DNA of 64,000 nt from NCBI GenBank assembly GCA_964361785.1, contig CAYIBX010000001.1, positions 5,857 through 69,856 on the forward strand. The letters are read 5' to 3'. Each line of letters opens with the position of its first letter. The stretch's first letter is position 1. The stretch comes from an uncultured Gammaproteobacteria bacterium. GTDB taxonomy: Bacteria > Patescibacteriota > Microgenomatia > UBA10105 > UBA927. This document shows, one piece after another, positions 2,734 to 51,566 of the stretch. The position numbers and the translations under genes are program-made. The notes beneath the pieces are model-generated. The model saw nothing but the letters and a program-made list of their open reading frames with translations. It was not told the origin of the DNA and made no database searches.

Positions 2734-2735
2734 CA

Positions 2736-4361: not shown

Positions 4362-4366
4362 AAGGC

Positions 4367-9901: not shown

Positions 9902-9902
9902 C

Positions 9903-29700: not shown

Positions 29701-30674
29701 AACGACCAACAATAAGCGTCATTATTCCTGTATATAATGTAGAAAGCATTTTGAAAGAAGTGCTTGTTAGCCTCATTATACAAACATACCCGATAGAGGA
29801 AATAATTCTCATTGATAATCATTCCGATGATAAATCTGTGAAAGTAGCAGATGAATTCATTCGAACTCACAAAAAAATAGCTATTCGCATCATTAAACGA
29901 AAACAAACATACGGACTTTCGCATAGTTATAATTTAGGAGCAAAGGAGACGAAATCAGAGTATATCGTGACACTTCATTCAGATAGCATGTTGCCTACTA
30001 AATTTGAGCTTTCACGGTTAATGGAGCCTTTAATAAAAAACACTGTTGATTATGTGGCGGCAATGCCGATTGTTGTGCATCGAAAACAAGAATGGGATAC
30101 CTACAATTTTTGGCAAAAGTGCCTTTTTGCTCAAGTAGTAGGAAAAGAACAGCATTCGTTAAATGGCAAATTTGATGCATACAGACGAGTAGTATTCATG
30201 TCGATTGAAGGTTTTGATATAAAAAATTTTAATCATTATATTGGTTCGGAAGATGCAGATATGAATTTTCGATTAGCTTCGCGAGGAAAGATAGCCGTTA
30301 CAAATGCTTGTGTAGTCCATCTTCATGGAAAAGATGCAAATTATAGCATGCAAGACTGGATGAAACGTAGAAAATTTTTAGCAATATCGTATGCTTTGCA
30401 GATACGGCTTCATTGGAGAGTAATGGGAGTTGGTTTTATTCCTTTTCTCGTGAAGCCTATGTTAGTTGTTTTGACAGTTTTATCATTTTTATATCCGTTA
30501 CTTGTGCTGCCATTAATTATTTTTCCTTTCTGGTATATGCGGACCATGTTTATAGATTCGGTATCGCGAAGAGATAGAAATATACTACTGTTACCGATTG
30601 TTGTGATCTGTTTGGTGTTTCTCGAAACATTCTGGATGACGAAAGGTTTGTTTGTAAGGAGATATTCGTTATAA
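29697..30674 (+). CDS. Family 2 glycosyltransferase with C-terminal TM segments
   Basis: 'ISVIIPVYNVESIL...ILIDNHSDDKS' followed by a hydrophobic C-terminus. Confidence 0.7.
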   Translation: MKRPTISVIIPVYNVESILKEVLVSLIIQTYPIEEIILIDNHSDDKSVKVADEFIRTHKKIAIRIIKRKQTYGLSHSYNLGAKETKSEYIVTLHSDSMLPTKFELSRLMEPLIKNTVDYVAAMPIVVHRKQEWDTYNFWQKCLFAQVVGKEQHSLNGKFDAYRRVVFMSIEGFDIKNFNHYIGSEDADMNFRLASRGKIAVTNACVVHLHGKDANYSMQDWMKRRKFLAISYALQIRLHWRVMGVGFIPFLVKPMLVVLTVLSFLYPLLVLPLIIFPFWYMRTMFIDSVSRRDRNILLLPIVVICLVFLETFWMTKGLFVRRYSL

Positions 30675-33787: not shown

Positions 33788-34558
33788 ATGATCAATCGCT
33801 TTTATAGGTCGAAATTTGATATCGAAAATTTGTCCAAACTTCGTACCTCAATTCCTACAGATGTCGATAATTTTAACTATCGGGGTATTGTGGTTAATAA
33901 ACCATGGGGATATGAATATCTATTGTATGAAAATCATGATGTCGCAGCGTGGGTATTGCATTTAAATAATAATCATAAAACATCTATGCATTGTCATCCT
34001 AATAAAAAAACGTCTCTTATAGTTGTTTCAGGTGAAGTTGTATGTAGTACTCTTGAGGGTTGGCTAACGAGAAAGCAGGGAGATGGAATAATCATTGAGG
34101 AAGGGGTATTTCATACCACGCGTGCAGTTTCCAAAGGTGGGGCGCTCGTTATAGAAGTGGAATGTCCACCGAATAAAAAAGATCTTGTTAGGCTAAAAGA
34201 TGCGTATGGTAGGGAAGATCAGGGATATGAGGGAGCCTCTCAAATGTCAAAGAATCTCGACGCATATACCTATGTAGATTTTCATACATATTCCAATGGC
34301 AAAAAAATGGAAAAATTACTTGATCACACAACGCTTACAATTGCTCATCATCCATATACCAAAGACGTTGGTGAATGTATTCGAAAAGCACGCGGGGAGC
34401 TTTTTTGTTTACTCAAGGGGAAGCTGCATGATGTTGATGGTCGATTGATTTTATCTGCTGGTGAAGTGGCGTTAGTTTCTTCATTGCGCAATATGACACA
34501 CATAGAAAATTTCTCTGATATACTCTATCTCACCTTATCTTATGGCAAAAACAGTTAA
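33788..34558 (+). CDS. Cupin-domain protein
   Basis: 'HCHPNKKTSLIVVSGEV' cupin motif. Confidence 0.5.
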   Translation: MINRFYRSKFDIENLSKLRTSIPTDVDNFNYRGIVVNKPWGYEYLLYENHDVAAWVLHLNNNHKTSMHCHPNKKTSLIVVSGEVVCSTLEGWLTRKQGDGIIIEEGVFHTTRAVSKGGALVIEVECPPNKKDLVRLKDAYGREDQGYEGASQMSKNLDAYTYVDFHTYSNGKKMEKLLDHTTLTIAHHPYTKDVGECIRKARGELFCLLKGKLHDVDGRLILSAGEVALVSSLRNMTHIENFSDILYLTLSYGKNS

Positions 34559-36356
34559 ACTCTCAGATTATATCGTCTCATTTTTTGTAAATAACGGCAT
34601 TCGTGACGCGTTTATGGTGACTGGTGGCGGGGCTATGCATCTGAATGAATCGTTTGGTAATAATCCGCGTTTACGATATTGGTGTAATCATCATGAGCAG
34701 GCTTCGGCAATAGGAGCAGAAGGATATACTCGGCTTTCTGGAAAAATTGCCGCTGTACAGGTTACTACTGGACCGGGAGGAACGAACGCAATTACCGGAC
34801 TTATAGGTATGTGGCTTGATTCTATTCCCGGTCTGTATATTTCCGGTCAGGCGAAGTTAGAGATGACGGTAGGTGATACCAAAGTCCGGCAAATCGGTTT
34901 ACAGGAAATACCGATTGTTCCGGTTGTTCAATCAATTACTAAATATGCGGTCATGATTACGGATCCGAATAAGATTAAATATCATTTAGAAAAAGCTTTA
35001 TATTTGGCTACAACTGGCCGACCAGGACCCTGTTGGATAGATGTTCCTCTCGATATACAGGCAGCAATGATTGATCCGGAGAGTTTGCCGGCATTCTCTC
35101 CGAATGAAGTTTCTATTGATATCGATAGTGAAACATCACTTCAGAATGCAGTAGATAAAACTGTGACGCTTTTAAAAATCAAGAAGCGCCCGGTGATGCT
35201 CGCCGGTAACGGAATTCGTCTTTCCGGCGCAGCTGATTTATTTCTTCGACTTGCTGAACGTCTCAACATACCTGTATTGACTGCGGTAACGGCTCATGAC
35301 TTGATCCCATCAGATCACCCGCTTTTCTTCGGCCGCCCGGCATTATTTGGTGAGCGCGTAGGAAATTTTGTCGTGCAGAATTGTGACTTACTGATCAGTA
35401 TCGGTACACGACTTTCGACGTGGACCATTTCGTATGCCTATGACACGTTTGCGCGTGCTGCTACACACGTTATGGTGGATATTGACCGAGAGGAACTCAA
35501 AAAGAAAACAGTACATCCAGATATACTAGTTTGTGCCGACGCAAAGATATTTATAGAAAGATTAAGTCAACAAACAAAAAATACCATATTTCCTCACCGT
35601 GAGGAATGGTTTGATTACTGCAAAAGAATCAGAACGGCATATCCTGCAGTGACGACTGAAATGAAGAGTCAAAAAAAATATGTTAATTCTTATTATTTTA
35701 TGGACGTGCTTTCAGATTGTATGAAGGAAAATGAAGTTATCGTTGTGGGTGATGGCACGGCATTTACGTGTACTTATCAGAGTATCCGAATTAAAAAAGG
35801 CCAACGCCTGATCGGAAACATCGGTTCTGCTCCGATGGGATATGATATCTCTGCAGCAATCGGTGCTTGTATTGCCAATGGGAAAAAACGAGTTGTATGT
35901 ATAGCAGGTGACGGGAGTATTCAGCTTAATATCCAGGAATTGCAGACAATTGTGCATCATAAATTTCCGATAAAAATATTTCTTATCAATAATAATGGAT
36001 ATCTTGCGATACGTAACACGCAAAAGAATTTTTTTAATCATCTTGTAGGAGAGGGTCCTAAAAGTGGTATTAGCTTTCCTAATATGCAAAAAATTGCAAA
36101 AGCGTATGGAATTACATCTGATCGTGTATCGACACATAAGAGCTTAAAGAAAAAGATACAAAAGGCACTTGCGGCACGCGGGCCCTATATACTTGAGATA
36201 ATGATGGATCCATGGCAGCCGTTAATTCCGAAAGTTTCTTCATATGTGCGTGCAGATGGTAAGCTCATCTCTAAGCCTATGGAAGATATGTGGCCATTTT
36301 TACCCCGAGAAGAGTTTCTAAAGAATATGATCGTTCCTCCCTTGAATGAGACATGA
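34542..36356 (+). CDS. Thiamine-diphosphate-dependent enzyme (acetolactate synthase/YerE-like)
   Basis: 'TGPGGTNAITGL' and the ThDP-binding motif 'IAGDGSIQLNIQEL...NN'. 604 aa. Confidence 0.8.
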   Translation: MAKTVKLSDYIVSFFVNNGIRDAFMVTGGGAMHLNESFGNNPRLRYWCNHHEQASAIGAEGYTRLSGKIAAVQVTTGPGGTNAITGLIGMWLDSIPGLYISGQAKLEMTVGDTKVRQIGLQEIPIVPVVQSITKYAVMITDPNKIKYHLEKALYLATTGRPGPCWIDVPLDIQAAMIDPESLPAFSPNEVSIDIDSETSLQNAVDKTVTLLKIKKRPVMLAGNGIRLSGAADLFLRLAERLNIPVLTAVTAHDLIPSDHPLFFGRPALFGERVGNFVVQNCDLLISIGTRLSTWTISYAYDTFARAATHVMVDIDREELKKKTVHPDILVCADAKIFIERLSQQTKNTIFPHREEWFDYCKRIRTAYPAVTTEMKSQKKYVNSYYFMDVLSDCMKENEVIVVGDGTAFTCTYQSIRIKKGQRLIGNIGSAPMGYDISAAIGACIANGKKRVVCIAGDGSIQLNIQELQTIVHHKFPIKIFLINNNGYLAIRNTQKNFFNHLVGEGPKSGISFPNMQKIAKAYGITSDRVSTHKSLKKKIQKALAARGPYILEIMMDPWQPLIPKVSSYVRADGKLISKPMEDMWPFLPREEFLKNMIVPPLNET

Positions 36357-37326
36357 ACATATGAAAATAGCTTTTTTTGACCTTCTACAATCTGAGCAGA
36401 GAGTATTCAAAATAATTTCTGCAAATTACGATTGTGTGTTTAATAAATCGTCACTTACGAAACAAATTGCCTCCACAATTTCTGACACGCAAGTTCTCTA
36501 CATACGAAGTATTGCAAAACTTACAAAAGAAATACTTGTTGAGCTTCCACAACTGGAATTTATCACGACAAGATCGACAGGGTTTGATCATATCGACCTA
36601 GAGTACTGCAAGAAACATAAGATAGTAGTCTCGAGTGTTCCGACGTATGCCACGAATGCAGTTGCTGAGCATACATTTGCATTATTGCTCGGGTTATCCA
36701 GAAAACTATTATTGTGCATCAATCAAACGAAGCATGGCATTGTCGACGCAGAAAAATTGCGCGGGTTTGAATTGAAAGGCAAGACATTGGGAGTTATAGG
36801 ATTTGGAAACATAGGTTCACGGGTCGTTGAAATAGCGCGCGGATTTGACATGCATATACTTGTTACGACAAAACATCCGAGCACTTCGCGCGCAAATAAG
36901 CATAGAGTTCAGTTTGTCGATCTACCAACATTATTACAAAAAAGCGATATCGTAAGTCTTCATGTGCCGCTGACTGATGAAACCAAACATATGATCAATC
37001 AAAACAATATACACCTATTTAAAAAAGATAGTATCCTTATCAATACTTCAAGGGGACCGGTAGTAGATACAGATGCATTAATTTTAGGTTTAGAGACAGG
37101 TGTGCTCGCAGGAGCGGGGATTGATGTTTTGGAAGATGAGCGCGTGTTTAAACGTAAATATCGCACTCTGCGTAATAGGTCGCGGTTTCTTTTGGAACAT
37201 AACAACGTTATTATTACACCGCATAATGCATATAATACCAAAGAAGCATATCAAACCATTTTAAATCTTAGTGCAGAAAATATTAGTGCTTATATAAAAG
37301 GAAAACCAATAAATCGGGTACTATAA
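36346..37326 (+). CDS. D-isomer-specific 2-hydroxyacid dehydrogenase family, NAD-binding
   Basis: 'GKTLGVIGFGNIGSRVVEIARGFDMHIL'. Confidence 0.75.
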   Translation: MRHEHMKIAFFDLLQSEQRVFKIISANYDCVFNKSSLTKQIASTISDTQVLYIRSIAKLTKEILVELPQLEFITTRSTGFDHIDLEYCKKHKIVVSSVPTYATNAVAEHTFALLLGLSRKLLLCINQTKHGIVDAEKLRGFELKGKTLGVIGFGNIGSRVVEIARGFDMHILVTTKHPSTSRANKHRVQFVDLPTLLQKSDIVSLHVPLTDETKHMINQNNIHLFKKDSILINTSRGPVVDTDALILGLETGVLAGAGIDVLEDERVFKRKYRTLRNRSRFLLEHNNVIITPHNAYNTKEAYQTILNLSAENISAYIKGKPINRVL

Positions 37327-37328
37327 AA

Positions 37329-37964
37329 TTGGTTATGATAAAAGCTGTGTTATTTGATTACGATGGTGTTCTTGCTGATACTATGAGGGACAATGATATT
37401 GCGTGGAAAAACGCGTTTGCTAAACAAGGGGTGACATTGGGGATTATGGAGTATCTACTGCTTGAGGGAATGACTCCACACGCTATAGCTACCAAACTTA
37501 CAAAAGACCATGGTCTTTCTGAGAGCGTTATAGCTGATATCATAGAAGATAAGAAAAAATATTATAAGGAAAATAATTCTTTTCGATTGTATCCAGGTGT
37601 TCAAAAATTTATCACGTCACTTCACCATCGAGGTATCAAACTTGCTTTGGTTTCAGGAGCAGCATCTCATCGTATAGAAGAGATGACTCCGAAAGAATTG
37701 CTTGTGCTTTTTGATGTCATCATAACGGCTGATGATGAAATTGCGTCAAAACCAAATCCTGATCCATATTTGAAAGCATTGAAAAAGATTGGAGTATCGG
37801 CCAACGAAGCTGTTGTCGTCGAAAATGCTCCATTAGGTATACAATCGGCAAGAGCGGCCGCTATTTACTGTATTGCCGTAACATCAACCCTTCCCGAAAT
37901 AGTGTTAAAAAATGCAGATAGAGTTGTACAAGATTTTAATGAGTTATCATCTGTTATTGAATAA
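37329..37964 (+). CDS. HAD-superfamily hydrolase (beta-phosphoglucomutase-like)
   Basis: 'IKAVLFDYDGVLADT' motif I. Confidence 0.75.
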   Translation: MVMIKAVLFDYDGVLADTMRDNDIAWKNAFAKQGVTLGIMEYLLLEGMTPHAIATKLTKDHGLSESVIADIIEDKKKYYKENNSFRLYPGVQKFITSLHHRGIKLALVSGAASHRIEEMTPKELLVLFDVIITADDEIASKPNPDPYLKALKKIGVSANEAVVVENAPLGIQSARAAAIYCIAVTSTLPEIVLKNADRVVQDFNELSSVIE

Positions 37965-37969
37965 TATAT

Positions 37970-38848
37970 ATGAAGACTCGAATTTTTCTTACGGGAGGCA
38001 GCGGTTTTATTGGAAGAAATATTTTAGAGCAGCTAGGTGAAAAGTACGCTATTGTAGCTCCCACACATACGCAGTTGGATCTTGGAAATGTTGACAGAGT
38101 GGAAGCTTTTTTAAAACAGTATCCTGTGGATGTTGTAGTGCACACGGCAAATATAGGGGGAAATATAGCAGAAAAGAATATATCTGGCGTCATGGCATAT
38201 AATTTACGTATTTTTTTTAATCTTGTACATAATCATAGATATTTCAAAAAGTTTATTTATTTAGGTTCAGGTGCACAATACGGAAAACAGTCATCAATTA
38301 TACGTGTGCGTGAAGAAGAATTGGATACGCGCATACCATCTGACGAGTTCGCATTGTACAAATATGTGTGTGCACAATTTATAGAAGGTACACCACTAAA
38401 CACGGTAAATCTCAGTATTTTCGGAATATATGGAAAATATGAAGAATATGCGTTTCGATTTATTTCACAGAGCCTTTGTCGCGCGTTGTTTGATTTACCA
38501 ATTGTAATAAAACAAAATGTTAAATTTGACTATATTTATGTAGATGATTTTATTCGTATCCTTGAGTATTTTATAGAACATGATCAACAATATCGAACAT
38601 ATAACATCGGGACCGGCATACCGATTGATCTGGTTACAATAGCCCAGCGTATTGTTATAATTACAAAAAAGAATATCCCTATACTTTTTGAAAAGAAGGG
38701 GCTGAATTTAGAGTATACATGCGACACAGCTAGACTACGCAAAGAATTGTCTGGCTTTCAATATACAGATTTTGACACAGCACTGTCTCGGCTCTACGAT
38801 TGGTATAAGAATAGGAAAACGTTATTGCGGAAGGAATTACTCATTTAA
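37970..38848 (+). CDS. NAD-dependent epimerase/dehydratase (SDR)
   Basis: 'RIFLTGGSGFIGRNILEQL'. Confidence 0.65.
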   Translation: MKTRIFLTGGSGFIGRNILEQLGEKYAIVAPTHTQLDLGNVDRVEAFLKQYPVDVVVHTANIGGNIAEKNISGVMAYNLRIFFNLVHNHRYFKKFIYLGSGAQYGKQSSIIRVREEELDTRIPSDEFALYKYVCAQFIEGTPLNTVNLSIFGIYGKYEEYAFRFISQSLCRALFDLPIVIKQNVKFDYIYVDDFIRILEYFIEHDQQYRTYNIGTGIPIDLVTIAQRIVIITKKNIPILFEKKGLNLEYTCDTARLRKELSGFQYTDFDTALSRLYDWYKNRKTLLRKELLI

Positions 38849-38852
38849 TATT

Positions 38853-39752
38853 ATGATGAAAAAAATTACAGATTCTCAATATTTTATTAGATTGTATCTC
38901 TATTATTTTGTATTTCAGGCACTACTGAAAAGTGTGTTGCCAACACTTCTTAATACAGAATTAAGCTTGTTTCGACGGTTACACACCCTCGCGTTGGAGA
39001 CTAGATTTTTTTTGAAAGCAGTATATATAAAATTATTTAGGATTCATGTAACGCATGAATCGTTTTTTGGCTATACAATGGAATTTCCTAATTACCTAGA
39101 ATTTGCGCTCCTTTTTATCGAGATATTCGGTATTCAAGAATATAAACTGAATAAGGAGAAAAACCGCATGATGATTATTGATTGTGGCAGCAGTTGGGGT
39201 ATGTCCCTGCTATATTTTAAACATATTTGTCCAGATGCGAAGATCGTTGCGCTTGAAGCAAATAAAAATACTGTTACTTACTTAATTAAGAATATAAAGA
39301 CGAATCACTTACATGATGTTCGGGTGCAGGTAGCATTTGTGACGGGTTTGAAAAAAAAGAATCATTCGTTTTATACATTTCAATCCAATGACGGATGGTC
39401 AGTCTCGGATACCGGAGCCTCTGATTTCGTTGAAGGACGAAAAGATTTGGTGGTTTCTCAGGTGAGGTCGATTCGTTTATCGCAGTTTCTTGGATCAAAA
39501 AAAGTAGATGTCGTGAAGCTTGATATAGAAGGTATGGAAGGGGAGGTTCTAGCGGAATCAAGGAATTATTTAGATCGCGTTGGGGAGTTTGTCATAGAAT
39601 ATCATCCAGGAATGAATAAGAAAAAAAATTCGTTGAAGAGAATCCTCACGTTATTGGAATTAAATAATTTTATCGTGAATGTTAATAATACAAAATCTAT
39701 CATAACAAATGAACATTCATTGAAAATGATACATGCAATGCGTAAAAAATAG
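38853..39752 (+). CDS. FkbM-family methyltransferase
   Basis: 'MIIDCGSSWGMSLLYF...VVKLDIEGMEGEVL'. Start at the internal ATG, 'MMKKITDSQY'. Confidence 0.65.
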   Translation: MMKKITDSQYFIRLYLYYFVFQALLKSVLPTLLNTELSLFRRLHTLALETRFFLKAVYIKLFRIHVTHESFFGYTMEFPNYLEFALLFIEIFGIQEYKLNKEKNRMMIIDCGSSWGMSLLYFKHICPDAKIVALEANKNTVTYLIKNIKTNHLHDVRVQVAFVTGLKKKNHSFYTFQSNDGWSVSDTGASDFVEGRKDLVVSQVRSIRLSQFLGSKKVDVVKLDIEGMEGEVLAESRNYLDRVGEFVIEYHPGMNKKKNSLKRILTLLELNNFIVNVNNTKSIITNEHSLKMIHAMRKK

Positions 39753-41161: not shown

Positions 41162-42031
41162 ATGAGTAAAATATTGCAAAGCATGTTAGGTTTTTTGTAT
41201 AAGATAGTTGGACCAGATTGGGTATTTTTTATTCTCATGGGTCCTGTGGGTCAGACCCTGATAAAAATATTCATACGACTTAGTAAAGATCCGATTTGTT
41301 TTCGTTCTAAATATGGATTTGCTATGGAAGTTTCCCCTTATGAATACTGGATGAGCGGCTATATGTTTTTGGGTGAAACAAACCCGCAAGAGACAGCAGT
41401 TATTGTCAGTGTCCTTCGTGTTGGTGATACCATGATAGACGCAGGCGCGCATGCTGGTTGGTATAGTCTTGTTGCTAGCCAATGCGTAGGGAGCGAGGGA
41501 TCTGTTCTGTCATTTGAGCCCAATCCAGTATGTGCAGATGTATTGAATCGTAATATCAAAATGAACGGATTTGATAATATTCAGATTATCCAGGATGCAC
41601 TTTCCAATAAGAGTGGCACATCACGCTTGTGGGTGGGGGATGATATGGGAGGATCACTGATCAAAGATCAAGCACAACACATAACAAAAAATAAAGTGAA
41701 AAGCATTACAGTAAAAACTCTTCGACTCGATGATTTTTTGAAAAAGCAGAAAACCATAAAGAATATCCGATGCATAAAAGTTGATGTTGAGGGAGCAGAG
41801 GTAGAAGTTTTGTTAGGGGCAAAAAAAATCCTACTTCAACATAAGCCAATAATTTTAGCAGAAGTATATTGTAAAGATCAGAAGCAACTAAGAAGAAGAG
41901 ATAAACTTTTTGTGTATTTAAAATCCTTGGGTTATGAACCGTTTTTGTTCACAAGAGACGGACTGAGAATAACAGAATATACACATATCTCTCATGATAC
42001 AATCAACATTGTTTTAAAACCCCATGTTTAA
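41162..42031 (+). CDS. FkbM-family methyltransferase
   Basis: 'MIDAGAHAGWYSLVAS...IRCIKVDVEGAEVEVL'. Confidence 0.65.
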   Translation: MSKILQSMLGFLYKIVGPDWVFFILMGPVGQTLIKIFIRLSKDPICFRSKYGFAMEVSPYEYWMSGYMFLGETNPQETAVIVSVLRVGDTMIDAGAHAGWYSLVASQCVGSEGSVLSFEPNPVCADVLNRNIKMNGFDNIQIIQDALSNKSGTSRLWVGDDMGGSLIKDQAQHITKNKVKSITVKTLRLDDFLKKQKTIKNIRCIKVDVEGAEVEVLLGAKKILLQHKPIILAEVYCKDQKQLRRRDKLFVYLKSLGYEPFLFTRDGLRITEYTHISHDTINIVLKPHV

Positions 42032-42314
42032 TCCTTTATTGCAGCTTACAGATTACTATGACTCTGCTCTTATTTATAAACCGAATGTTTTTTTCGTTGT
42101 ATCTCCAGTATTCATAATCATGTTGTTGTATTGGTTAGTGCGACGCATGAGTGACGTTATCATGTTTGTGCGCTATATCATTTCGTCAAAATCCTCGAAA
42201 CTGAATGCTCGGTATCGTTGGTTTAAAAATGTATACTTACAAGCTCAAAAGCAATACAAACGTATAATAAAAAAGATTGCTGATGAGATTTTACTTCCGG
42301 AGGATGAAGCATGA
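42024..42314 (+). CDS. Small membrane protein, hypothetical
   Basis: 96 aa, one TM segment, operonic overlaps. Confidence 0.35.
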   Translation: MFNPLLQLTDYYDSALIYKPNVFFVVSPVFIIMLLYWLVRRMSDVIMFVRYIISSKSSKLNARYRWFKNVYLQAQKQYKRIIKKIADEILLPEDEA

Positions 42315-42805
42315 AATATTTAGCGGTATTGTTTCTTTTGATATGTTCGTTTCTGATTCCACCGAGTGTCAATGCTCAATACAGGTATCCGTGGCCAGGC
42401 ATACTACAGGATCACCCTCTTTATAAAATCAAAGTTTTACGAAATAAGATTATCGAGAAGCTTATTTATAGCCCAGTTCGGAGGGTGGAGTACGACCTCC
42501 TGACTGCGGATAAAATGCTTTATGCAGCAGAGCTTCTGAATACAAAAGGGGAAACAAGACTGGCGAAAGAGACAATTCTTAAAGGAGAGAATTATATGAG
42601 TAAGCTGGTATCTGATTATTTTCACGCGTCTGCATCCGGGTACCGTATTCCAGAATCATTGTCAGTGCGAATAAGCCAAGCGCACGTGGCACATCAGACG
42701 TTGATTATCAATTTGGTCGCCAAAGCTGCACCACAGGACAAAAAAACCTACGAGGATGTGTTATATTTTTCGAGAAAAAATCAAGATATGCTTGAGGGGG
42801 AATGA
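42311..42805 (+). CDS. Secreted hypothetical protein
   Basis: 'MKYLAVLFLLICSFLIPPSVNA' signal peptide. Confidence 0.45.
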   Translation: MKYLAVLFLLICSFLIPPSVNAQYRYPWPGILQDHPLYKIKVLRNKIIEKLIYSPVRRVEYDLLTADKMLYAAELLNTKGETRLAKETILKGENYMSKLVSDYFHASASGYRIPESLSVRISQAHVAHQTLIINLVAKAAPQDKKTYEDVLYFSRKNQDMLEGE

Positions 42806-42848: not shown

Positions 42849-45284
42849 ATGAATAGATTAAAGTTCAGTTCATTAGTTAGATTTGTTCCGATCTTATTTG
42901 CGATAGCACTTTTTGTTTTGCCATTCGTTTGGTATCGGCATGGTGAAATTGATCTTGGTGGTGATTTCAGCAGGCTGTATTTGTATGCGCCGTGGCGGTA
43001 TCTGCAGATTTTTGGGCTGTACAGCATCGTCCCTGAGGGGATTGGTCGGGTGACCCCTAATCAATATTATCTACCGTATCTTTTGTTTCTCGCGGGAATT
43101 AATCAGATTCTTCGATCACCATACTTGCTCATCCACGTATTTAGCGGTTTAAAGCTTGCGGTAGGTTTCCTTGCAATGTACGCCATTGTGAGAAACTTTG
43201 TTGGAAAACGTGCGCACCACCTCATAGCAGAGTTATCTGCTCTTCTTGCCGGAATCTTTTATATCTTTTCTCCATCAGTCATCGGCAATATGAATAACTC
43301 CTTACTATCACACGATCAGGTTTTTCTTAATCCACTCATGTTCTACTTGATGCTGCGTTTCATTCAGAGTAAGAAATGGGTATTTGTCGCTGTTGCATTT
43401 TGCGTCACTTTATTATTCTCGGGTAACTTTTCGTGGTTTAGCGCGCCTCCAATGTTTGCTTTTTATCCAATTGCGATAGTTTTTCTTATGCTGTACGCAG
43501 TAATCGTCCTAAAATCCAAAATCCCGTACAAAAAGATAGGCTTTGGCCTCGTTTTGTTTTTAGGATTACACTTATTTCATTTATTACCCGAAGCAAAAAG
43601 CCTGTTAACACAGGGAAGTTATACAAATGTTCGATTCTTTGACCGGCAGACCATTGTTCAAGAAGGCGTTCAGTACTTTATAGCAGTTCTTTCTCTTTCA
43701 AAGGCAAGCCTTAATTTTCTTTTCCCGTCGACAATCTCATTTTTTGCGCCTCTTGTGATTTTAGTCCCGCTTACAATGATTTTGGGGGTGTGCCTGAGAA
43801 AAACAAAGCATGCAGATTTACCTCTAGTGATGTCGTTTTTCGTTCTTACATTTTTTTTGGTTACGGCCAACATCACCCATATAGGCGTGGAGTTTTATAA
43901 ACGACTATTCTATATTCCAGGCTTTTCCATGTTTAGAAACTTTATCGGACAATGGCAATTCGTATATAATTTTTTTGCTGCACTTTTTCTAGGACTTGCC
44001 GCAGAACAACTCATGCTCCGTACGAAGAAATATTATGGGATGTATTTCATTTCAATTGTTCTCTTGGGCGTTATAGTTAACGCCACGCCGTTTATTTCTG
44101 GAAATTTGGCTAATCCGGTTCGCTGGGGATCAAAGGGTGTTCGTACAGCCATCATTATGGACCCTGCGTATCTAAGAGTATTAGATTACATACATGCACT
44201 ACCGTCGGACGGAAAAATTCTCACGCTTCCATTTACGGACTGGGGAGCTCAAGTGGTTCACGGACTCAATAATGCAGCCTATGTCGGTCCATCAACGATT
44301 TCTTATCTTGCAGGAAAACCGGATTTTTCAGGATACCAAATGATTGCACCGTTTCCGGAAATTTTCTTTAGACTCTCGCGAGAGAAGAATTATGCAGCTC
44401 TTCGACGTTTATTTAGGCTTCTTAATATTCGATACATTTATCACAACAGCGCGCACAATATCTATGACGACATATTTCCTCAGTTTCCTTATACCTATGC
44501 GCGACTTTCACTTCCGGACACCCAGGACGGCATGACGGAACTGGTACAGAAACTAGGCGCGAAGAAGATTTTTTCTCTGAAAAGCTATAACATATACGAG
44601 CTTTCTGATTTTCTTCCCATCGTATACGTTCCGACGTCCGTTGTGTTTTATCAGAATTCCATAAACGATTGGTACGGACAGACGGCATCGTTTTTTATAA
44701 ACGATACGTCGGTACAGCTGCGACAGGTATACGCTGATCAAAAAGATTGTGGTGTACTTGATCAACGTTTATGTGAGACAAATATACATGTCTTGCAGAA
44801 AACAACCCCAAAACTTACGATTATCCGGATCAATCCAACGCGTTACAAAATTGGCGTTTCAGGTATCACGGGTCCGTTTTTGTTAGCGTTTCTTCAAGGG
44901 TACGATAAAGCATGGACGGCGTACATTTCAGATCAGACTCAGGACGGTAGCGGTCCGTATGACCAATCATATCTTGAAGGTGACGTGAAGGAAAAAAGTG
45001 CGTCTTATGCGACCGATACACTATTTGATACCCATTTTTTTTCGACACGTGGACTCAAAGCGGTCGCTTCATCTCGACATATTCTGGTGAATGGCTATGC
45101 GAATGGATGGTATATAACCAACCAGGACATAGATGGTCGCGACGCTGTTACTATCATATTGGAGATGCGGGATCAAAAATATTTTGTCATAGGACTTACG
45201 GTTTCGTTTGCCTGTGCGCTATTTCTCACTGTCAGTATTCTGTTTAGTATAATAAGAAATCGGTTGTCGGGAAAAGATATATGA
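42849..45284 (+). CDS. Giant polytopic membrane protein with extracytoplasmic C-terminal domain, GT-C/YfhO-AftD-like, giant-family paralog 1
   Basis: Start at the internal ATG, 'MNRLKFSS'. Motifs 'DLGGDFSRLYLYAPWRYL', 'IPGFSMFRNFIGQW', 'KILTLPFTDWG', 'GPSTISYLAGKPDFSG', C-terminal 'GYANGWYIT'. Confidence 0.6.
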   Translation: MNRLKFSSLVRFVPILFAIALFVLPFVWYRHGEIDLGGDFSRLYLYAPWRYLQIFGLYSIVPEGIGRVTPNQYYLPYLLFLAGINQILRSPYLLIHVFSGLKLAVGFLAMYAIVRNFVGKRAHHLIAELSALLAGIFYIFSPSVIGNMNNSLLSHDQVFLNPLMFYLMLRFIQSKKWVFVAVAFCVTLLFSGNFSWFSAPPMFAFYPIAIVFLMLYAVIVLKSKIPYKKIGFGLVLFLGLHLFHLLPEAKSLLTQGSYTNVRFFDRQTIVQEGVQYFIAVLSLSKASLNFLFPSTISFFAPLVILVPLTMILGVCLRKTKHADLPLVMSFFVLTFFLVTANITHIGVEFYKRLFYIPGFSMFRNFIGQWQFVYNFFAALFLGLAAEQLMLRTKKYYGMYFISIVLLGVIVNATPFISGNLANPVRWGSKGVRTAIIMDPAYLRVLDYIHALPSDGKILTLPFTDWGAQVVHGLNNAAYVGPSTISYLAGKPDFSGYQMIAPFPEIFFRLSREKNYAALRRLFRLLNIRYIYHNSAHNIYDDIFPQFPYTYARLSLPDTQDGMTELVQKLGAKKIFSLKSYNIYELSDFLPIVYVPTSVVFYQNSINDWYGQTASFFINDTSVQLRQVYADQKDCGVLDQRLCETNIHVLQKTTPKLTIIRINPTRYKIGVSGITGPFLLAFLQGYDKAWTAYISDQTQDGSGPYDQSYLEGDVKEKSASYATDTLFDTHFFSTRGLKAVASSRHILVNGYANGWYITNQDIDGRDAVTIILEMRDQKYFVIGLTVSFACALFLTVSILFSIIRNRLSGKDI

Positions 45285-45613
45285 TTATACAACGTTATGT
45301 GCTTCAAGCGCGAAAGTATTTACTAGCAAACAATAACGCCATCATGTCATTGTTGTCATCTATGGTATTGGTGGATATATTTATCATCCCTAGGATGTCA
45401 GATGTCCGGACGTATGGCATCCTATTTCTATATGCAATAGACACATGGGTCATTGGGAGAAAAAGTAAGACCACGTTTATTGGTTGTCTTGCATTGCTTC
45501 TTCTTATGTATGTTCTATATCTTCTTACGGGAACTTCAGAACAAACTGAAAAGGTGGCAGTGTGGCTGTTTCTTTTGTTGTTGATCGGAGTTGTTCAGAT
45601 TTGGAATGAGTAA
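45281..45613 (+). CDS. Small 2-3 TM membrane protein, tandem paralog 1
   Basis: C-terminal 'TEKVAVWLFLLLLIGVVQIW' parallels 'TERLAVWFVLFFVLGIFTQW' of the next gene. Confidence 0.5.
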   Translation: MIIQRYVLQARKYLLANNNAIMSLLSSMVLVDIFIIPRMSDVRTYGILFLYAIDTWVIGRKSKTTFIGCLALLLLMYVLYLLTGTSEQTEKVAVWLFLLLLIGVVQIWNE

Positions 45614-45625
45614 TTTTAAAGTCAC

Positions 45626-45973
45626 ATGAAAAAAGATATTCAAAAAATGATGCATGACACGGCAAAATGGATTCATGGAAATCCACTGACTTTTTTGGCA
45701 TTTGTCTCCATACTCGTTATAGCTGAAGTATTTGCTTTTCCGATTTCATTAGATGTGCGATTGTTTGGTGCACTATTTTTATATTGGTTTCTTGCTCGTA
45801 TAGGAAAGCTTACGAGTGCGCGAGTGTTTCAATTGTGTATTATTTTGTTGACTGGAATGGTTTTAGGATATCTAATCAGCGGAGCAGCAGCGACTACTGA
45901 GCGTTTGGCCGTTTGGTTTGTATTATTTTTCGTTCTCGGAATATTTACGCAGTGGCGGGAGATAACCGCATGA
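45626..45973 (+). CDS. Small 2-3 TM membrane protein, tandem paralog 2
   Basis: See the previous feature. Its stop overlaps the start of giant paralog 2. Confidence 0.5.
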   Translation: MKKDIQKMMHDTAKWIHGNPLTFLAFVSILVIAEVFAFPISLDVRLFGALFLYWFLARIGKLTSARVFQLCIILLTGMVLGYLISGAAATTERLAVWFVLFFVLGIFTQWREITA

Positions 45974-48900
45974 AAGGAAAGTTGCTCCCTACGGTCATTA
46001 CGTGTATTCTTTTCATCATTCCTTTTTTTTGGCTCAAACCCGGATTTATGGATTTAGGGGGGGATTCCAGCCGATTGTACTTTTATGATCCTCTCCGATA
46101 TCTTATTAATTACTCTTTGTTTGTTGTGTCTCCCTCTGGTGGAGGCAGTGAGAATATCGGTTTTATGACGATACCATTTGTGGCTCTTTTGGCAGTAGCA
46201 AAGCGAATACTTGTCTCATCGACAGTACTTATAAGCGCATTTCATGGTTTCAGTTTAGCCGCGAGTTTTTTGTTTGTATATTTATCGGTTGTTCAACTGT
46301 TGCACACTTCCATGAAAGGCGAACGATTAAAAGAATTAGCAGCATTGGCAGGAGGGTTACTCTATGTTTTTTCACCCATTTCAATATTTGGTTGGGATAA
46401 GGTGCTTATAACCCATAATTATGTATTCCTAAACCCTGTCATGTTTTATTTGATGTTGCGATACATGGTGACTGATCGGTTTTTTTATCTTTTTTGGGCG
46501 CTTCTGGTAACTTTTATATTTTCTGCGAATTTTAGTTTTGCAGCTGCACCGGTTTTCTTTGCATTTTATCCAATTTCTCTTGTGTTGTTACTGGTGTATA
46601 AACGACGGGTATTGGATCAAGCTGTTCATTGGAGACAGCTTGGTGTGGCGAGTATTGTATTTATACTTCTTCAGGCGTTTCATATAGTGCCGCAAATTGC
46701 CAGCATGGTAACTCCTGGGAGTGTTTTGTATTCTGCTGTGTTTTCTTCCCAGGGGAAGTTTGATCGCGGACTTGGATACTTTTCCTCCATTGCGCCGAGT
46801 ATAAAAACATCGATTAATGTGATGTTACTTCCGCAGATGACGGAAGTTTCTAAACTCCTTATATTCATGATAATGCTTCCATTGACGGTTATATTAGGGT
46901 TGTTGCGAAGCGGAAAAGAGGAACAACGATTTAAGAAAACGTTCCTGTTGATCGGGGCATTCTTTATTGTGATTTTCTTTTTTGCCACAGGGAATATCAC
47001 TGATCTTGGTCTGTCGGTATATAAAAAATTATTTATACTTCCTGGATTTTCTATCTTTCGTAACTTTTATGGACAGTGGGCGGGTGCATACTTATTTTAT
47101 TATGCGGTGATTTTTGGATTAGCGCTTCCTGTCGTATTAGAGGTGTATAAGAAAGCGAAGGTGTGGCTTTTAGTTTTTGTTTTTTTGCTTCTCGTTAACG
47201 CGTGGCAGTTTATCAACGGATCTTTAACAAATCCACTTTTATGGGATGCTGACAATATTCGGATAGCTATGAATATGGATCCTAATTTTAAACTGGCTCT
47301 TGAGTATATTCGCAAATTGCCCACAGGCGGAAAAGTATTGACGCTCCCACTTACTGATTTTGGCTATCAGATTGTAGCAGGGAAAGATACTGGAGCATAT
47401 CAAGGGCCGTCGATGATTTCATATTTGGGGGGAAAACAGGATTTTTCGGGGACTGGCGAATTTGGAAGATATCGTGAACTTTTTCTTGAAAGCGTACGGG
47501 ATGGAAACATAGATGAGGTGAAGCGTATATTGGGTATCTTAAATATCAGGTATGTGTTTTATACTAGTGACCCGAAGGTGTATGATGCTTTTCTTGAGTT
47601 TCCGTATAATGACGTCAGAAAATATTTTCCCAAACGTCAGAAAGAGTATGCACAGTTTGTCGATTCGCTTGCGCTACGACTCGTAGCTTCTTTTGATAAT
47701 CGATTTTATATTTATGAACTGCCCAGTGAGAATGTGACACCTCGCATTTATATCGCAAAAAATACGACAGCCATATCGCGAGTGGTTGTAGACGCTTCTG
47801 TACCGTTAGAATTGTTGTCTGATGATATTGGTGAGTCTGCGTTTTTTGATGGATCTCAGACGCCATCATCTGCATCGGCATTTTGGTATCCAGCGGAATC
47901 GCAAAGCTCTCTTCTTGCCATGGTAAAAAATCCAGATCCGTTCAGGATCATGCACCATGCGTTCGTGACTACGTCGCCTTCGTCATTTTATTATCCGTTG
48001 ATAGTATTAAAGGAAACAGTAAAATTATGGAAATTTGGCAGAGCCAATTATTTTTCGCGTATCGACCAACAATCATTTTTATCCGCAAAGCGAATTCTTG
48101 AGTTGGAACGTTGGGGCGAGAGTATGTCGGTATTGGGAACGTTACACACACTTTCTGATTTTAACACTGCGCACAAAGAGCCCGGAGTGTCTCGTGATAG
48201 TCCTCGCCTTTGGGATGTTTCTGCATGGAAGCGTTTAAATAGTTGGGAAGCAACACTTGCGCGCTACTATAGATATTTTGACGATAATATAAAAACGATT
48301 GATGCCATAGATCAATCGCTACAATGGAAGATGGAACAAAAATTCCTACTGTCTGAATATTTGCGTCAGCACTACCGACGACTAACGCTTCTGATACAGC
48401 AGCGTGATCCCATAAAAGCACACAGAGACTATCTTGAAGAGATTACGGATATGATATTTGGAAACCTTCTTGAGAGGACCAATGCGGATCTCTCTGATTT
48501 GACTATACCGTATAGCGTGCAATTGCCGAAGGGTAACACTGAATCGTATGGTGTCTATCTTGATAAAAATACGTATGGTATAAATGAGCATTTTTCCATA
48601 ACAGTTGGGGATGAGAAGCTAGATAGTTTGATAACTGAAGAAGGTCGCTGGAATAAATTAGGCACAGTAGTGCAAACAGAAAATGATTCCCTGAATCAAA
48701 TGCGTCTGTCTTTGATTGAACCGAAAAATTTATTAACGGATAATTCAAGGATGATGCTAGAATCAGAACTTTCATCCACAGATTCAGCGAGTTTTGCGAT
48801 AGACGCGCGCTATATAAAGGGCGCAAAGGGATTGGTGTGGAAGATTGACGATTGGCAACCGCAAAGTTATTATCTTTTGACATTTGCCTATCGCACAAGC

Positions 48901-49578
48901 GGGGAGCCGTTTGTCGTTCGGACGCTAGAAAGTGAGATTCTTCGACCCGCTTCGCCCCAGAACGCTCAGCGAGGCGAGCAAGCTCAGGACGGAAAAGTTG
49001 ATAGTACAAATACGATTGTTGAAGATATGTTGAAATCTCCTACATGGGCACAGTATCAAGCAGTGGTCAGGACCAATAAGTTCGTGAATACTGGATTTAT
49101 ACAGATATCTCCATCCACCGATCACTTATCCCTTTCGCGCATAGAGCTCAAGAATGTATCGCTTGTTCATATACCGCATCCTCTCGTGATGCTTTTGAAA
49201 AACAACGAGAAGAAAATTGTGTCGCAACCGACCATATCATTCGTTCAAGTTAATCCAACGCTGTATAAAATTCATGTTTCTGGTGCAGATCAACCATATG
49301 TATTAGCATTGAGTGAAGCGTTTAATCGCAGGTGGCGCGTCTCTCTTGCTGGTTTTGATAAAGGTATCGCCAGCACGCGTCACTTTCAAGCCAATGGGTA
49401 TGCGAATGCGTGGTATATAACGCCAGAAGATGTTGATAGGCAAAGTGAATATGATTTGGAATTGTATATGAGTATGCAATCCTATTTTTATATTGGCGCG
49501 AGTATAAGTATCGTTGCATTAATCGGTTTACTATCGTATGGAATGTGGAGATATATAAAAAAATGGGGTCGCGTATGA
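45970..49578 (+). CDS. Giant (~1200 aa) polytopic membrane protein, giant-family paralog 2, with a ~400-aa extracytoplasmic insertion
   Basis: 'MDLGGDSSRLYFYDPLRYL', 'LPGFSIFRNFYGQW', 'KVLTLPLTDFG', 'GPSMISYLGGKQDFSG', C-terminal 'GYANAWYIT'. Collinear with 42849..45284 except for an extra soluble block from about 47.8 to 49.2 kb. Confidence 0.6.
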   Translation: MKGKLLPTVITCILFIIPFFWLKPGFMDLGGDSSRLYFYDPLRYLINYSLFVVSPSGGGSENIGFMTIPFVALLAVAKRILVSSTVLISAFHGFSLAASFLFVYLSVVQLLHTSMKGERLKELAALAGGLLYVFSPISIFGWDKVLITHNYVFLNPVMFYLMLRYMVTDRFFYLFWALLVTFIFSANFSFAAAPVFFAFYPISLVLLLVYKRRVLDQAVHWRQLGVASIVFILLQAFHIVPQIASMVTPGSVLYSAVFSSQGKFDRGLGYFSSIAPSIKTSINVMLLPQMTEVSKLLIFMIMLPLTVILGLLRSGKEEQRFKKTFLLIGAFFIVIFFFATGNITDLGLSVYKKLFILPGFSIFRNFYGQWAGAYLFYYAVIFGLALPVVLEVYKKAKVWLLVFVFLLLVNAWQFINGSLTNPLLWDADNIRIAMNMDPNFKLALEYIRKLPTGGKVLTLPLTDFGYQIVAGKDTGAYQGPSMISYLGGKQDFSGTGEFGRYRELFLESVRDGNIDEVKRILGILNIRYVFYTSDPKVYDAFLEFPYNDVRKYFPKRQKEYAQFVDSLALRLVASFDNRFYIYELPSENVTPRIYIAKNTTAISRVVVDASVPLELLSDDIGESAFFDGSQTPSSASAFWYPAESQSSLLAMVKNPDPFRIMHHAFVTTSPSSFYYPLIVLKETVKLWKFGRANYFSRIDQQSFLSAKRILELERWGESMSVLGTLHTLSDFNTAHKEPGVSRDSPRLWDVSAWKRLNSWEATLARYYRYFDDNIKTIDAIDQSLQWKMEQKFLLSEYLRQHYRRLTLLIQQRDPIKAHRDYLEEITDMIFGNLLERTNADLSDLTIPYSVQLPKGNTESYGVYLDKNTYGINEHFSITVGDEKLDSLITEEGRWNKLGTVVQTENDSLNQMRLSLIEPKNLLTDNSRMMLESELSSTDSASFAIDARYIKGAKGLVWKIDDWQPQSYYLLTFAYRTSGEPFVVRTLESEILRPASPQNAQRGEQAQDGKVDSTNTIVEDMLKSPTWAQYQAVVRTNKFVNTGFIQISPSTDHLSLSRIELKNVSLVHIPHPLVMLLKNNEKKIVSQPTISFVQVNPTLYKIHVSGADQPYVLALSEAFNRRWRVSLAGFDKGIASTRHFQANGYANAWYITPEDVDRQSEYDLELYMSMQSYFYIGASISIVALIGLLSYGMWRYIKKWGRV

Positions 49579-51566
49579 ATAGAAAAGTTGTGCTTGTTGG
49601 ATTCGCGGCTTTTATGATTGTCATTTTTATATATCGACCATGGTTTACGGGTAGTGAAATTATTGGTGGTGATTGGCCATATCTATTTCCTGAAATGGTA
49701 AACACGATGTCGCGCGTGCCATCCTCATGGCAGGCTGGATACGGGGGAGGATTGGGAGGATTATCCCCAGCATATTTTTTGAGCACCTATAATTTCTTAT
49801 TTGCACAGATTGCCATTTTTACCGGAACTTCTTGGATAGCGATATATAAACTGTTTTGGTTTTTGTGTCCCGTAGTAATATTAGCAGTTGGTGGGTGGCG
49901 TTTGTTGGCAACGGTGTTGCCGAGTTCCTCTTTGTGGATGCGTGCGATGGCATCACTTATTTTGGCGACAAACACGTATGTGCTTATGGTAACCGGTGGT
50001 GGGCAAATGGGAGTGTTTTATGCGGTATCGATTTTTCCATGGGTGCTTTTGTCTTTTTTTCGATTTCTTCGTGATACAAGAAATCCTTGGCCGACAACAC
50101 TTATATTAGGGACAGTGTTTGGTGTTCAAGTGTCTTTAGATCCAAGAATAGCGTATTTATCCGCAATAAGCATGGTAGTGTTGTATTTTTTTGAAGGGGA
50201 CGGATGGGTAAAGTTATGGAGAAGATTACGTTTTGGCGCTGTGGCAGGTATAATAGGGATTTTGTTAAATCTATATTGGGTATTGCCGTTACTCATGCTT
50301 AAAGAGAATACGTTAGACGCATTAGGAAGTGCCTATACGACGGTTTCAGCGCTTCGATTTTTTAGCTTTGCTGATTTTTCTCACGCTCTCTCATTGCTTC
50401 ATCCTAATTGGCCGGAGAATTTGTTTGGGAAAACATATTTTTTACAACCGGAGTTTTTACTGCTTCCAATACTTGCATTTTCAAGTTTACTTTTTGTAAA
50501 AAAGTTTAAAGAGAACACATTAGTTATTGGATTTGCGGCGTTAGGATTAGTCGGAGCCTTTCTATCGAAAGGAGCCAACGAGCCGCTGGGTTTTGTGTAT
50601 GTGTGGGTTTTTGAGCATGTTCCTGGATTTGTGATGTTTCGTGATCCGACGAAATTTTATGTATTGATCATGACGTCGTATGCGGTACTTATACCAATTG
50701 CGCTGTTTTCAATCACCCAAGTGATGAAAAAATATTTGATTAAATTTTTGTGGATTGTTCCAATTGTATTTATTTGTTACTGGATTGTTTTAATTCGACC
50801 AGCAGTGAATGGGTCATTAGGCGGCACATTTACAAAACGAGAAGTGCCCACACAATATATTGCATTGAAAAAAGTGTTACAAAATGAACAAGGATTTTTT
50901 CGTACACTGTGGGTTCCTCGACAAAGTAGATTCGCTTATTCATCATCCAATCAGTTGCCGATAGAAGCTCAACCTCTTTTAGGAGCCACTGATAGCGCAT
51001 CGTTAGAACGTGCATTGCAAGCCCCGACTGTGGGAGGTCAATTAGATATGTTGAGCATCCGTTATATCATAGTTCCTTTTGATCCATATGGAGAAATATT
51101 TACTGATGACAGAAAATATAGTCAAACAAAAAGAGAAGATGTAGAGAAAGTCCTTGATACCGTGCCATGGCTTAGTAAAATTCAGTTGAATGACATCGCG
51201 ATGTACAAAACACCTCAATCGAAAGATCATTTTTCGTTAGAGAACGGAACGATTATAGATTGGCGTAAAATATCTGATGATTCGTATGAAGTTGATGTGC
51301 AGGTTTCACAAGCGACAAAGCTCATGGTTTCAGAGTCATATCATCACGGATGGCAAGCTAATATAAAGGGTGAGCTGGTAGAGGCTATCAAAGAACCATT
51401 TGGCACTATGTCGTTTGCATTACCCCAAGAAGGGTCATATACCGTTGTTATAGAGTTTGCTCCTCGTCGATGGTATTTGTTGGGAAGAATTTTATCGCTG
51501 GTCACTTTGGGTGCTATTGTTCTATGGTTATTTGTATTTCGTGTATATGCTCAAAAAAAACGCTAA
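49575..51566 (+). CDS. Polytopic membrane protein, giant-family paralog 3 (shorter)
   Basis: 'IGGDWPYLFPEM', 'VPGFVMFRDPTKFY', C-terminal 'SESYHHGWQANIKGE' (YfhO-like tail). Start taken at the ATGA-overlap ATG. Confidence 0.5.
   Translation: MNRKVVLVGFAAFMIVIFIYRPWFTGSEIIGGDWPYLFPEMVNTMSRVPSSWQAGYGGGLGGLSPAYFLSTYNFLFAQIAIFTGTSWIAIYKLFWFLCPVVILAVGGWRLLATVLPSSSLWMRAMASLILATNTYVLMVTGGGQMGVFYAVSIFPWVLLSFFRFLRDTRNPWPTTLILGTVFGVQVSLDPRIAYLSAISMVVLYFFEGDGWVKLWRRLRFGAVAGIIGILLNLYWVLPLLMLKENTLDALGSAYTTVSALRFFSFADFSHALSLLHPNWPENLFGKTYFLQPEFLLLPILAFSSLLFVKKFKENTLVIGFAALGLVGAFLSKGANEPLGFVYVWVFEHVPGFVMFRDPTKFYVLIMTSYAVLIPIALFSITQVMKKYLIKFLWIVPIVFICYWIVLIRPAVNGSLGGTFTKREVPTQYIALKKVLQNEQGFFRTLWVPRQSRFAYSSSNQLPIEAQPLLGATDSASLERALQAPTVGGQLDMLSIRYIIVPFDPYGEIFTDDRKYSQTKREDVEKVLDTVPWLSKIQLNDIAMYKTPQSKDHFSLENGTIIDWRKISDDSYEVDVQVSQATKLMVSESYHHGWQANIKGELVEAIKEPFGTMSFALPQEGSYTVVIEFAPRRWYLLGRILSLVTLGAIVLWLFVFRVYAQKKR

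Follow-up and report, generated by a model that had tools for sequence, protein, structure and literature searches.

We have analysed a window of 64,000 nucleotides from contig CAYIBX010000001.1 (assembly GCA_964361785.1), in which five tightly packed genes occupy 42.8-51.6 kb on the + strand. They encode three large membrane proteins, named A, B and C here, and, between A and B, two mini-proteins, s1 and s2 (Table 1). The ATGA stop/start overlaps at the A/s1, s2/B and B/C junctions point to a single translationally coupled operon. These gene positions, including those of the mini-protein pair, agree with the original prediction, which had been made from the DNA alone. Only the length of 842 aa given there for A requires correction: it belongs to the maximal open reading frame (ORF; from 42756), which overlaps the upstream gene, and the homologs of A start at MNRLKF. 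A protein identical to A has been recorded from a Patescibacteria metagenome-assembled genome (MAG), where it is annotated as hypothetical.

Table 1. Genes and features of the cassette, and long forms of the mini-protein gene in related loci (rows without a locus number refer to the window; TM, transmembrane).
Feature	Position	Strand	Description
A	42849-45284	+	811 aa from MNRLKF; GT-C-fold membrane protein
s1	45281-45613	+	110 aa; 4-TM mini-protein; start overlaps A stop (ATGA)
s2	45626-45973	+	115 aa; 4-TM mini-protein, s1 paralog; stop overlaps B start (ATGA)
B	45970-49578	+	1202 aa; GT-C-fold paralog of A with inserted soluble block
C	49575-51566	+	663 aa; remote homolog of A/B; start overlaps B stop (ATGA)
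DLGGD motif of A (D35-D39)	42951-42965	+	first extracytoplasmic loop (predicted)
DLGGD motif of B (D28-D32)	46051-46065	+	G, G, D invariant in 51 sequences
GGD motif of C (G31-D33)	49665-49673	+	invariant in 42 homologs
B insert part 1, five-helix soluble bundle	47992-48480	+	model residues 673-835
B insert part 2, beta-sandwich	48505-49203	+	model residues 844-1076; resembles carbohydrate-binding modules
long-s, L033	16253-17332
long-s, L035	15720-16691
long-s, L038	7419-8351
long-s, L068, L069, L042

The three large proteins had been described as collinear paralogs. This description fits A and B, which are unambiguous paralogs with 37% identity over 602 aa (E 6e-111) and an additional 29% in the C-terminal domain. 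C stands further away, and its homology to the others becomes visible only when profiles are compared. By BLASTP, A and C showed no significant similarity (E 0.2), and the match between B and C (E 0.003) was confined to one transmembrane (TM) stretch. Taken alone, these unconvincing matches would suit the idea that the shared motifs are a compositional or chance likeness among hydrophobic proteins. On the other hand, profiles built from 41 A-type and 42 C-type homologs aligned in hhalign with a probability of 99.6% (E 3e-24) over 622 collinear columns, soluble domains included, at 16% identity, and this alignment pairs the DLGGD motif with an IIGGD loop motif of C, as well as PGFxMFR and the C-terminal domain. 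The conserved homologs of the large proteins number in the hundreds (906 for the C family). In the A family, the conserved residues include G37, G38, D39, R42 and P48 in the first loop and P461, D464, G480, W689, Y750-A751-N752-W754 and the C634/C642 pair in the soluble domain. Because conservation extends to loops and soluble domains and is not limited to helices, the similarity is not compositional, and the concern raised with the prediction, that the motifs might be restricted to TM helices, does not hold. We regard chance likeness as refuted. On the evidence of these profiles, C is a remote, full-length collinear homolog, and the trio consists of two close paralogs and one remote homolog sharing one architecture of GT-C core, soluble domain and C-terminal TM helix.

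The list of shared motifs was only partly retained. GGD, PGFxMFR and, weakly, (L/S)IRY also occur in C, but most of the others are confined to A and B. The pairing of GYAN(G/A)WYIT with GWQANIKGE that was first suggested is out of register, since the profile alignment places HHGWQA of C on YDKAWTA of A. The extra soluble block of B is present at approximately residues 600-1085, but its size is nearer to 480 aa than to the approximately 400 aa first estimated.

Neither A nor B matched any family in Pfam 2025 or NCBIfam 20, and the 41 A-family members showed no consistent Pfam family. Single sequences of A and C, as well as profiles of the A, B and C families, gave no significant sequence match in the PDB, AftD included, and the profile of the B insert gave none either. 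The earlier statement that no characterised enzyme could be matched is thus borne out for A and B. PF11847 (GT-C_AftD / DUF3367) was not matched by A, B or C at its gathering threshold; among their relatives, one of the 41 A-family members (E 0.26) and three of the 42 C-family members (best 8e-5) showed similarity to it. The three families are unannotated in Pfam 2025 and NCBIfam 20. The enzyme class to which they belong is known; within it, we regard the family as new and the mini-protein as a new accessory protein. A literature search on GT-C proteins of the candidate phyla radiation (CPR)/Patescibacteria and on glycosyltransferase families of Microgenomates returned nothing relevant.

We constructed AlphaFold2 models of A and B from their family alignments, and both were confident (pLDDT 86.1 and pTM 0.88 for A; pLDDT 86.6 and pTM 0.80 for B). 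In the model of A, the TM core (residues 1-416) has approximately 13 TM or juxtamembrane helices, and its first loop contains two short helices. The core is followed by an alpha/beta domain (420-600) assigned to the extracytoplasmic side, by a beta-sandwich (600-775) and finally by a TM helix (776-807) that anchors the C-terminus. In the model of B, a single TM helix (1167-1199) likewise forms the C-terminus, and the helical bundle of its insert carries the conserved polar residues Y673, E680, K705, R706, E709, N755, W757, E758, R763 and Y764. The polytopic cores can be superimposed on solved GT-C enzymes. AftD was the best structural match of A and B by a clear margin and by aligned length, at 12-13% identity, followed by Pmt4 and STT3. 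These next best folds leave room for a protein as the acceptor, through O- or N-glycosylation of S-layer, pilin or other surface proteins in the manner of PMT, OST or TMEM260. However, AftD acts on polysaccharide, B contains a glycan-binding module resembling a carbohydrate-binding module (CBM), and the models include no MIR or OST-type peptide-binding domain. Accordingly, we consider a protein acceptor unlikely.

The C-terminal beta-domain had been called YfhO-like, and the cassette could in principle encode ordinary YfhO/GtlB teichoic-acid glycosyltransferases of the CsbB-GtcA-YfhO system that have diverged too far for Pfam. The resemblance holds only loosely. Both groups share a TM core, a C-terminal beta domain and a terminal TM helix; five of the 42 C-family relatives weakly match PF09586 (best E 1.1e-6), a few C relatives showing weak YfhO, DUF6541 or GT-C_AftD matches; and small partners with three to four TM segments are typical of such systems (PMC8035078). 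However, PF09586 (gathering threshold 28.5 bits) was matched by none of A, B and C and by none of the 41 A-family members, and the closest solved structure to A and B is AftD. The mini-proteins do not belong to the GtrA family, no CsbB/GtrB-type GT2 was identified among the neighbouring genes, and three GT-C genes in a fixed order with a 480-aa insert are unlike the YfhO pattern. We therefore hold this explanation to be very improbable.

In all three families, the segment before TM1 has a net charge of +2, the first loop, which carries the GGD motif, a net charge of -2, and the C-terminal tail a net charge of +2 to +2.8. Together with the Cys pair in the soluble domain of A (93% conserved), this charge pattern indicates that the GGD loop and the large domain face the outside of the cell, as in GT-C enzymes. 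The proposal that the DLGGD loop is extracytoplasmic is supported by the charge distribution of every family. The Gly-Gly-Asp after TM1 is invariant in A (D39; 41 homologs), B (D32) and C (D33). Moreover, GGDDSRLY is kept in full-length relatives with 22-25% identity from a PVC-group bacterium and a Methanococcoides archaeon, and still more distant relatives retain G-D after TM1. A, B and C thus share with GT-C enzymes an acidic residue that is conserved in the first outer loop, directly following TM1. In AftD, K39 and D41 of the first loop, E251, K361 and D474 are essential (bioRxiv 10.1101/2019.12.22.885152), and A has D39, R363 (in PGFSMFR) and D464 (in LPFTD) at sequence positions similar to those of D41, K361 and D474. 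By this positional likeness, D39 of A is a candidate catalytic or metal-binding Asp.

A different possibility is that A, B and C derive from GT-C enzymes but are non-catalytic, serving as membrane scaffolds or lipid-delivery factors like MmpA (Rv0226c/NCgl2761). The only curated model matched by C in NCBIfam is NF053599 MmpA (E 5e-14). MmpA is homologous to the N-terminal part of AftD, is proposed to act as a membrane anchor and is needed for acetylation and transport of trehalose lipids, with no transferase activity known (PMC8698533). In addition, methyltransferases are linked to both systems, MtrP in the one and, in the other, the mini-protein-FkbM fusions and inserted methyltransferase genes described below. 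However, the score of 51.7 bits is far under the cutoff of 210 bits. The invariance of GGD and PGFxMFR across three anciently diverged families and distant phyla fits a retained active site, B carries its CBM-like module, and the whole neighbourhood is devoted to glycan synthesis and contains no lipid-transport genes. In consequence, a non-catalytic role seems quite unlikely to us.

The mini-proteins s1 and s2 are paralogs (33% identity, E 1e-19), as was first noted, but they have four hydrophobic segments and not the two or three assigned to them. An alignment of 45 s proteins from related loci revealed a K/R-rich N-terminus, a K/R-rich loop between segments 2 and 3, an Asp conserved in 98% near the outer end of TM1, an invariant Asp in the loop between segments 1 and 2, an invariant Glu followed by Lys before TM4, and a C-terminal W-R-E. 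From the charge distribution, s is predicted to have an N-in/C-in topology that places its acidic cluster on the outer side of the membrane. With 139 clusters in 1.84 billion representatives, the family is a small one. Two subtypes, 'after-A' and 'before-B', can be distinguished, and both copies in the window belong to the latter, indicating that s1 and s2 arose by a lineage-specific duplication.

As small proteins (approximately 120 aa) of three to four TM segments beside a GT-C gene, s1 and s2 resemble GtrA-type partners in size and position. For such GT-C-associated proteins in three-component and multi-component systems, the roles considered are those of a flippase for the lipid-linked donor and of an activator or anchor of partner proteins (PMC8035078; PMC11127046). 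We rejected an assignment of s to the GtrA or SMR proteins. None of 34 members matched Pfam at E<=10, GtrA PF04138 included, the s profile found no match in the PDB, and hhalign gave a probability of 0.1% both for EmrE and for a GtrA sequence. SMR transporters are marked by a membrane-embedded Glu in TM1; in s, the TM1 position of this kind is the Asp near the outer end of the helix. With regard to its role, a physically docked subunit or adapter stands at about even chances in our estimate, and a GtrA-like flippase of the lipid-linked donor is a more tentative proposal. We favour the docked subunit, and the two roles are compatible.

To place the cassette in a wider context, A-, C- and s-type ORFs were mapped in a scan of one genome per species, which yielded 72 loci (numbered with the prefix L). 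In 16 complete Microgenomates loci, where the contig is long enough, the genes stand on one strand in the order A (~800 aa), s, B (~1190-1290 aa) and C (~670-730 aa). An s gene directly precedes B in 21 of 24 cases, and C follows B in 19 of 22, the three exceptions being the first B of doubled cassettes. Downstream of A, s is found in 24 of 36 cases; where it is missing, the gene is mostly an additional A paralog lying upstream. At another locus, the gene calls made independently by NCBI give 802, 119, 1194 and 701 aa, none with a Pfam match on record. In the complete chromosome of a Levyibacteriota bacterium (762,565 bp), a doubled cassette A-s-B-s-s-B-C spans at least 12.3 kb. Titled records with the cassette come from Levy-, Gottesman- and other Microgenomates/Patescibacteria MAGs. 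Many third-party annotation MAG records with a typical Microgenomates cassette are labelled 'uncultured Gammaproteobacteria', which looks like a placeholder or a wrong taxonomy. The core of the cassette is constant and its flanks are variable, with methyltransferase or epimerase genes occasionally inserted; across the mapped loci, we rejected the upstream DUF5667 gene and the downstream GT4 gene as constant parts. A methyltransferase gene lies between s and the next GT-C gene in L012, L016, L035 and L038.

The s module also occurs in fused forms. In three representative clusters (P0390, P0412 and P0428) and in L015 (2910-4028), s is fused to a C-terminal FkbM (RfbT-like) methyltransferase, which fits a cytoplasmic C-terminus of s. 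A hidden Markov model (HMM) of s detected s-like ORFs directly after more distant GT-C relatives (L061, L065, L067 and L071). It also showed that s is the C-terminal module of a longer protein (long-s, 310-360 aa; Table 1) consisting of an N-terminal TM segment, an ectodomain of approximately 180 aa and the 4-TM module (hhalign against s: probability 97.8%, E 1e-12). The long-s genes adjoin GT-C genes or lie between them; in one lineage, long-s sits between the second GT-C gene (there ~740 aa) and C. The ectodomain carries the motif FRIKE..W...Y...FPFGFP..DSKGK.Y.FE.ES, and its identity with the B insert was rejected (hhalign probability 0.5%). In L048 (12124-16134; Gottesmanbacteria UBA6580), a single ORF of 1336 aa combines long-s with a complete C-type GT-C (534 bits), an extra TM segment and an SGNH/GDSL-like domain with the motifs GDSL, GTNDA and DTIH, which suggests that an O-acyl modification of the glycan is coupled to the transferase. 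The existence of these fusions speaks for a role of the s module in physical contact with the GT-C protein. The original prediction of dedicated small subunits is upheld by the s-B and s-A adjacency, the ATGA overlaps and the L048 fusion.

The genes around the cassette form an island for glycan biosynthesis that extends over more than 50 kb and lies nearly wholly on the + strand. The island contains PMT_2/YfhO-type GT-C, GT2 and GT4 genes, approximately ten SDR epimerase/dehydratases, DegT aminotransferases, FkbM and other methyltransferases, nucleotidyltransferases and a TPP enzyme. Two FkbM genes (38772-39752 and 41162-42031) are situated just upstream of the cassette. At 1129-13202, there is a tandem array of six multi-pass proteins of approximately 510-550 aa with PMT_2, PTPS_related or YfhO matches, two of them without a Pfam match; these are further GT-C-type paralogs, interrupted by one GT2 gene and one DUF5667 gene, and the A and C family HMMs did not detect them at E<=1e-5. 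DUF5667-like proteins with an N-terminal hydrophobic segment are encoded at 9774-10433 and 42311-42805, each just upstream of a GT-C block. The second of these genes overlaps the maximal ORF of A, and this DUF5667 arrangement is kept only in the closest relatives (L001 and L009). A block at 33788-37964 encodes a cupin, a three-domain TPP-dependent enzyme, a D-2-hydroxyacid dehydrogenase and a HAD hydrolase amid epimerases, aminotransferases and FkbM. It may be a route to a branched-chain or acyl-decorated sugar, perhaps by YerE-like chemistry, and the same block is also found upstream of the cassette in L006. An ATPase gene (AAA_14 + DUF4143; 14232-15593) stands in the middle of the island without an obvious role in glycan synthesis.

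Downstream of C in five loci (L002, L013, L023, L026 and L073), an SDR epimerase/dehydratase (331-342 aa) is followed by a GT2 (~340 aa). We looked at this GT2 in three of the loci (L002, L023 and L026), and a C-terminal TM segment was predicted in each; NCBIfam does not class it as GtrB, ArnC or DPM1. This pair is a candidate donor-synthesis module, and it is absent at the corresponding position of the window. With respect to a CsbB/GtrB + GtrA partnership, the neighbouring GT2s in the window and the loci of ~20 kb are generic by NCBIfam, and the 34 s proteins, the only short ORFs compared with the GtrA family, gave no match to it.

Considering these results together, we propose that A, B and C are probably three non-redundant GT-C glycosyltransferases of an unannotated AftD-like family, which use polyprenyl-phosphate-sugar donors to build a surface glycan with the help of a 4-TM partner. 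The original prediction of lipid-linked-sugar transferases or polymerases with small subunits is supported here by the fold, topology, synteny and fusions; the activity, the donor, the acceptor and the role of s we infer. In such a mechanism, A, B and C would reside in the cytoplasmic membrane with the N-terminus inside, the GGD loop and the large soluble domain outside and the C-terminal helix re-anchoring the chain. By analogy with all characterised GT-C enzymes, the sugar would be taken from a polyprenyl-phosphate-linked donor at the outer face of the membrane and added to a growing cell-surface glycan, or possibly to a surface protein. The precursors would be made by the GT2, GT4 and sugar-nucleotide-modifying genes of the surrounding island. 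The CBM-like beta-sandwich of B would additionally hold the acceptor polymer, and s would act as a dedicated integral-membrane partner, chiefly of B. The conserved and translationally coupled order A-s-B-C suggests that the three enzymes may act in sequence or as one complex, comparable to Emb/Aft in mycobacterial arabinan synthesis.

Several points weigh against this proposal. Catalysis by A, B and C is read from fold and context. The correspondence of D39 with D41 of AftD is drawn from sequence position, and the nearest sequence-level match of C is MmpA, for which no catalysis is known. In the window and the ~20-kb loci, with GT2s classed by NCBIfam, no polyprenyl-phosphate-sugar synthase was identified. 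The cassette-adjacent GT2s of L002, L015, L031 and L035 have C-terminal TM segments, but we rejected this as evidence for a donor synthase, as NCBIfam classes them as generic GT2 and not as GtrB, ArnC or DPM1; the only ArnC match, a faint one, lies at 29697-30674 of the window. By sequence, s resembles neither GtrA nor SMR proteins nor any entry of Pfam or the PDB, and the five-helix bundle of B (residues 673-835) has neither an informative structural match nor a functional analog.

A bolder form of the proposal would make A-s-B-C a self-contained extracytoplasmic glycan-polymerising machine of Microgenomates and their relatives, an equivalent of Emb/Aft that produces a CPR-specific wall or surface polymer from lipid-linked monosaccharides. 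Here, s would represent an obligate GT-C subunit of a new class and would also flip the polyprenyl-phosphate-sugar donor; in some lineages, the fused FkbM would first methylate this donor in the cytoplasm. We consider this extended form possible but doubtful.

A large part of bacterial diversity belongs to the Patescibacteria (CPR), and hardly any work has been done on their envelopes. The cassette is probably an undescribed part of surface-sugar building in these ultra-small cells, and it offers a concrete, testable candidate for how episymbiont-like cells build surface glycans. It is a heavy investment for small genomes, since the doubled version amounts to approximately 1.6% of the complete 0.76-Mb Levyibacteriota chromosome. 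Two or three unannotated families could seed Pfam or CAZy entries, namely the A/B GT-C, the C GT-C and the 4-TM s module with its long and fused forms. For GT-C enzymology, the cassette provides an AftD-like core simpler than AftD itself, with a single C-terminal helix, and a genetically obligate mini-partner that is naturally fused in some lineages and is thus attractive for structural work. We expect the interest to lie with specialists in CPR envelope biology and GT-C enzymology, and it is no categorical surprise. The GT-C enzyme class and the logic of a GT-C with a small membrane partner in a glycan island are known already; the novelty lies in the constant A-s-B-C order of the cassette, in the s module and its fusions, and in the occurrence of a simplified AftD-like architecture among Patescibacteria.

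Compared with known systems, A and B resemble AftD (PDB 6W98/6WBX; PF11847) in fold but lack the features that define it. AftD has 16 TM helices, a C-terminal five-helix bundle with bound acyl carrier protein and three CBMs, whereas here a single TM helix forms the C-terminus and CBM-like modules number zero (A and C) or one (B). Conversely, the soluble helical bundle of B has no counterpart in AftD, and here a 4-TM mini-protein accompanies the cassette. To our knowledge, the host Patescibacteria have no arabinogalactan, in contrast to the setting of AftD. The MmpA protein is likewise polytopic and similar to AftD's N-terminal part, and its one extracytoplasmic domain is located towards the C-terminus; unlike C, which reaches a quarter of the model cutoff, it is specific to Corynebacterineae, handles trehalose mycolates and has approximately 470-540 aa.

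The systems of CsbB/GtrB, GtrA/GtcA and YfhO/GtlB/Gtr* also link an outside-acting GT-C genetically to a small protein of three to four TM segments in a monoderm envelope, and they share the YfhO-like C-terminal beta domain and terminal TM helix. They differ in that the present cassette has three GT-C genes and a mini-protein outside the GtrA family that may be fused to a GT-C or to a methyltransferase. Rv3789 (GtrA/SMR-like, arabinan), ArnE/ArnF and GacJ resemble s in length (~110-125 aa), in their three to four TM segments, in their position beside GT-C/GT-A genes and in sometimes forming a paralogous pair; they are proposed to be flippases, anchors or activators (PMC8035078; PMC11127046). 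In contrast, s has no detectable sequence relationship with them and a distinct residue signature. Finally, the Emb/Aft arabinan line also employs several paralogous GT-C enzymes, some with CBMs, which act sequentially outside the membrane on one polymer with a polyprenyl-phosphate-sugar donor. The analogy is one of logic only, and, unlike in that line, the genes described here are contiguous and translationally coupled.

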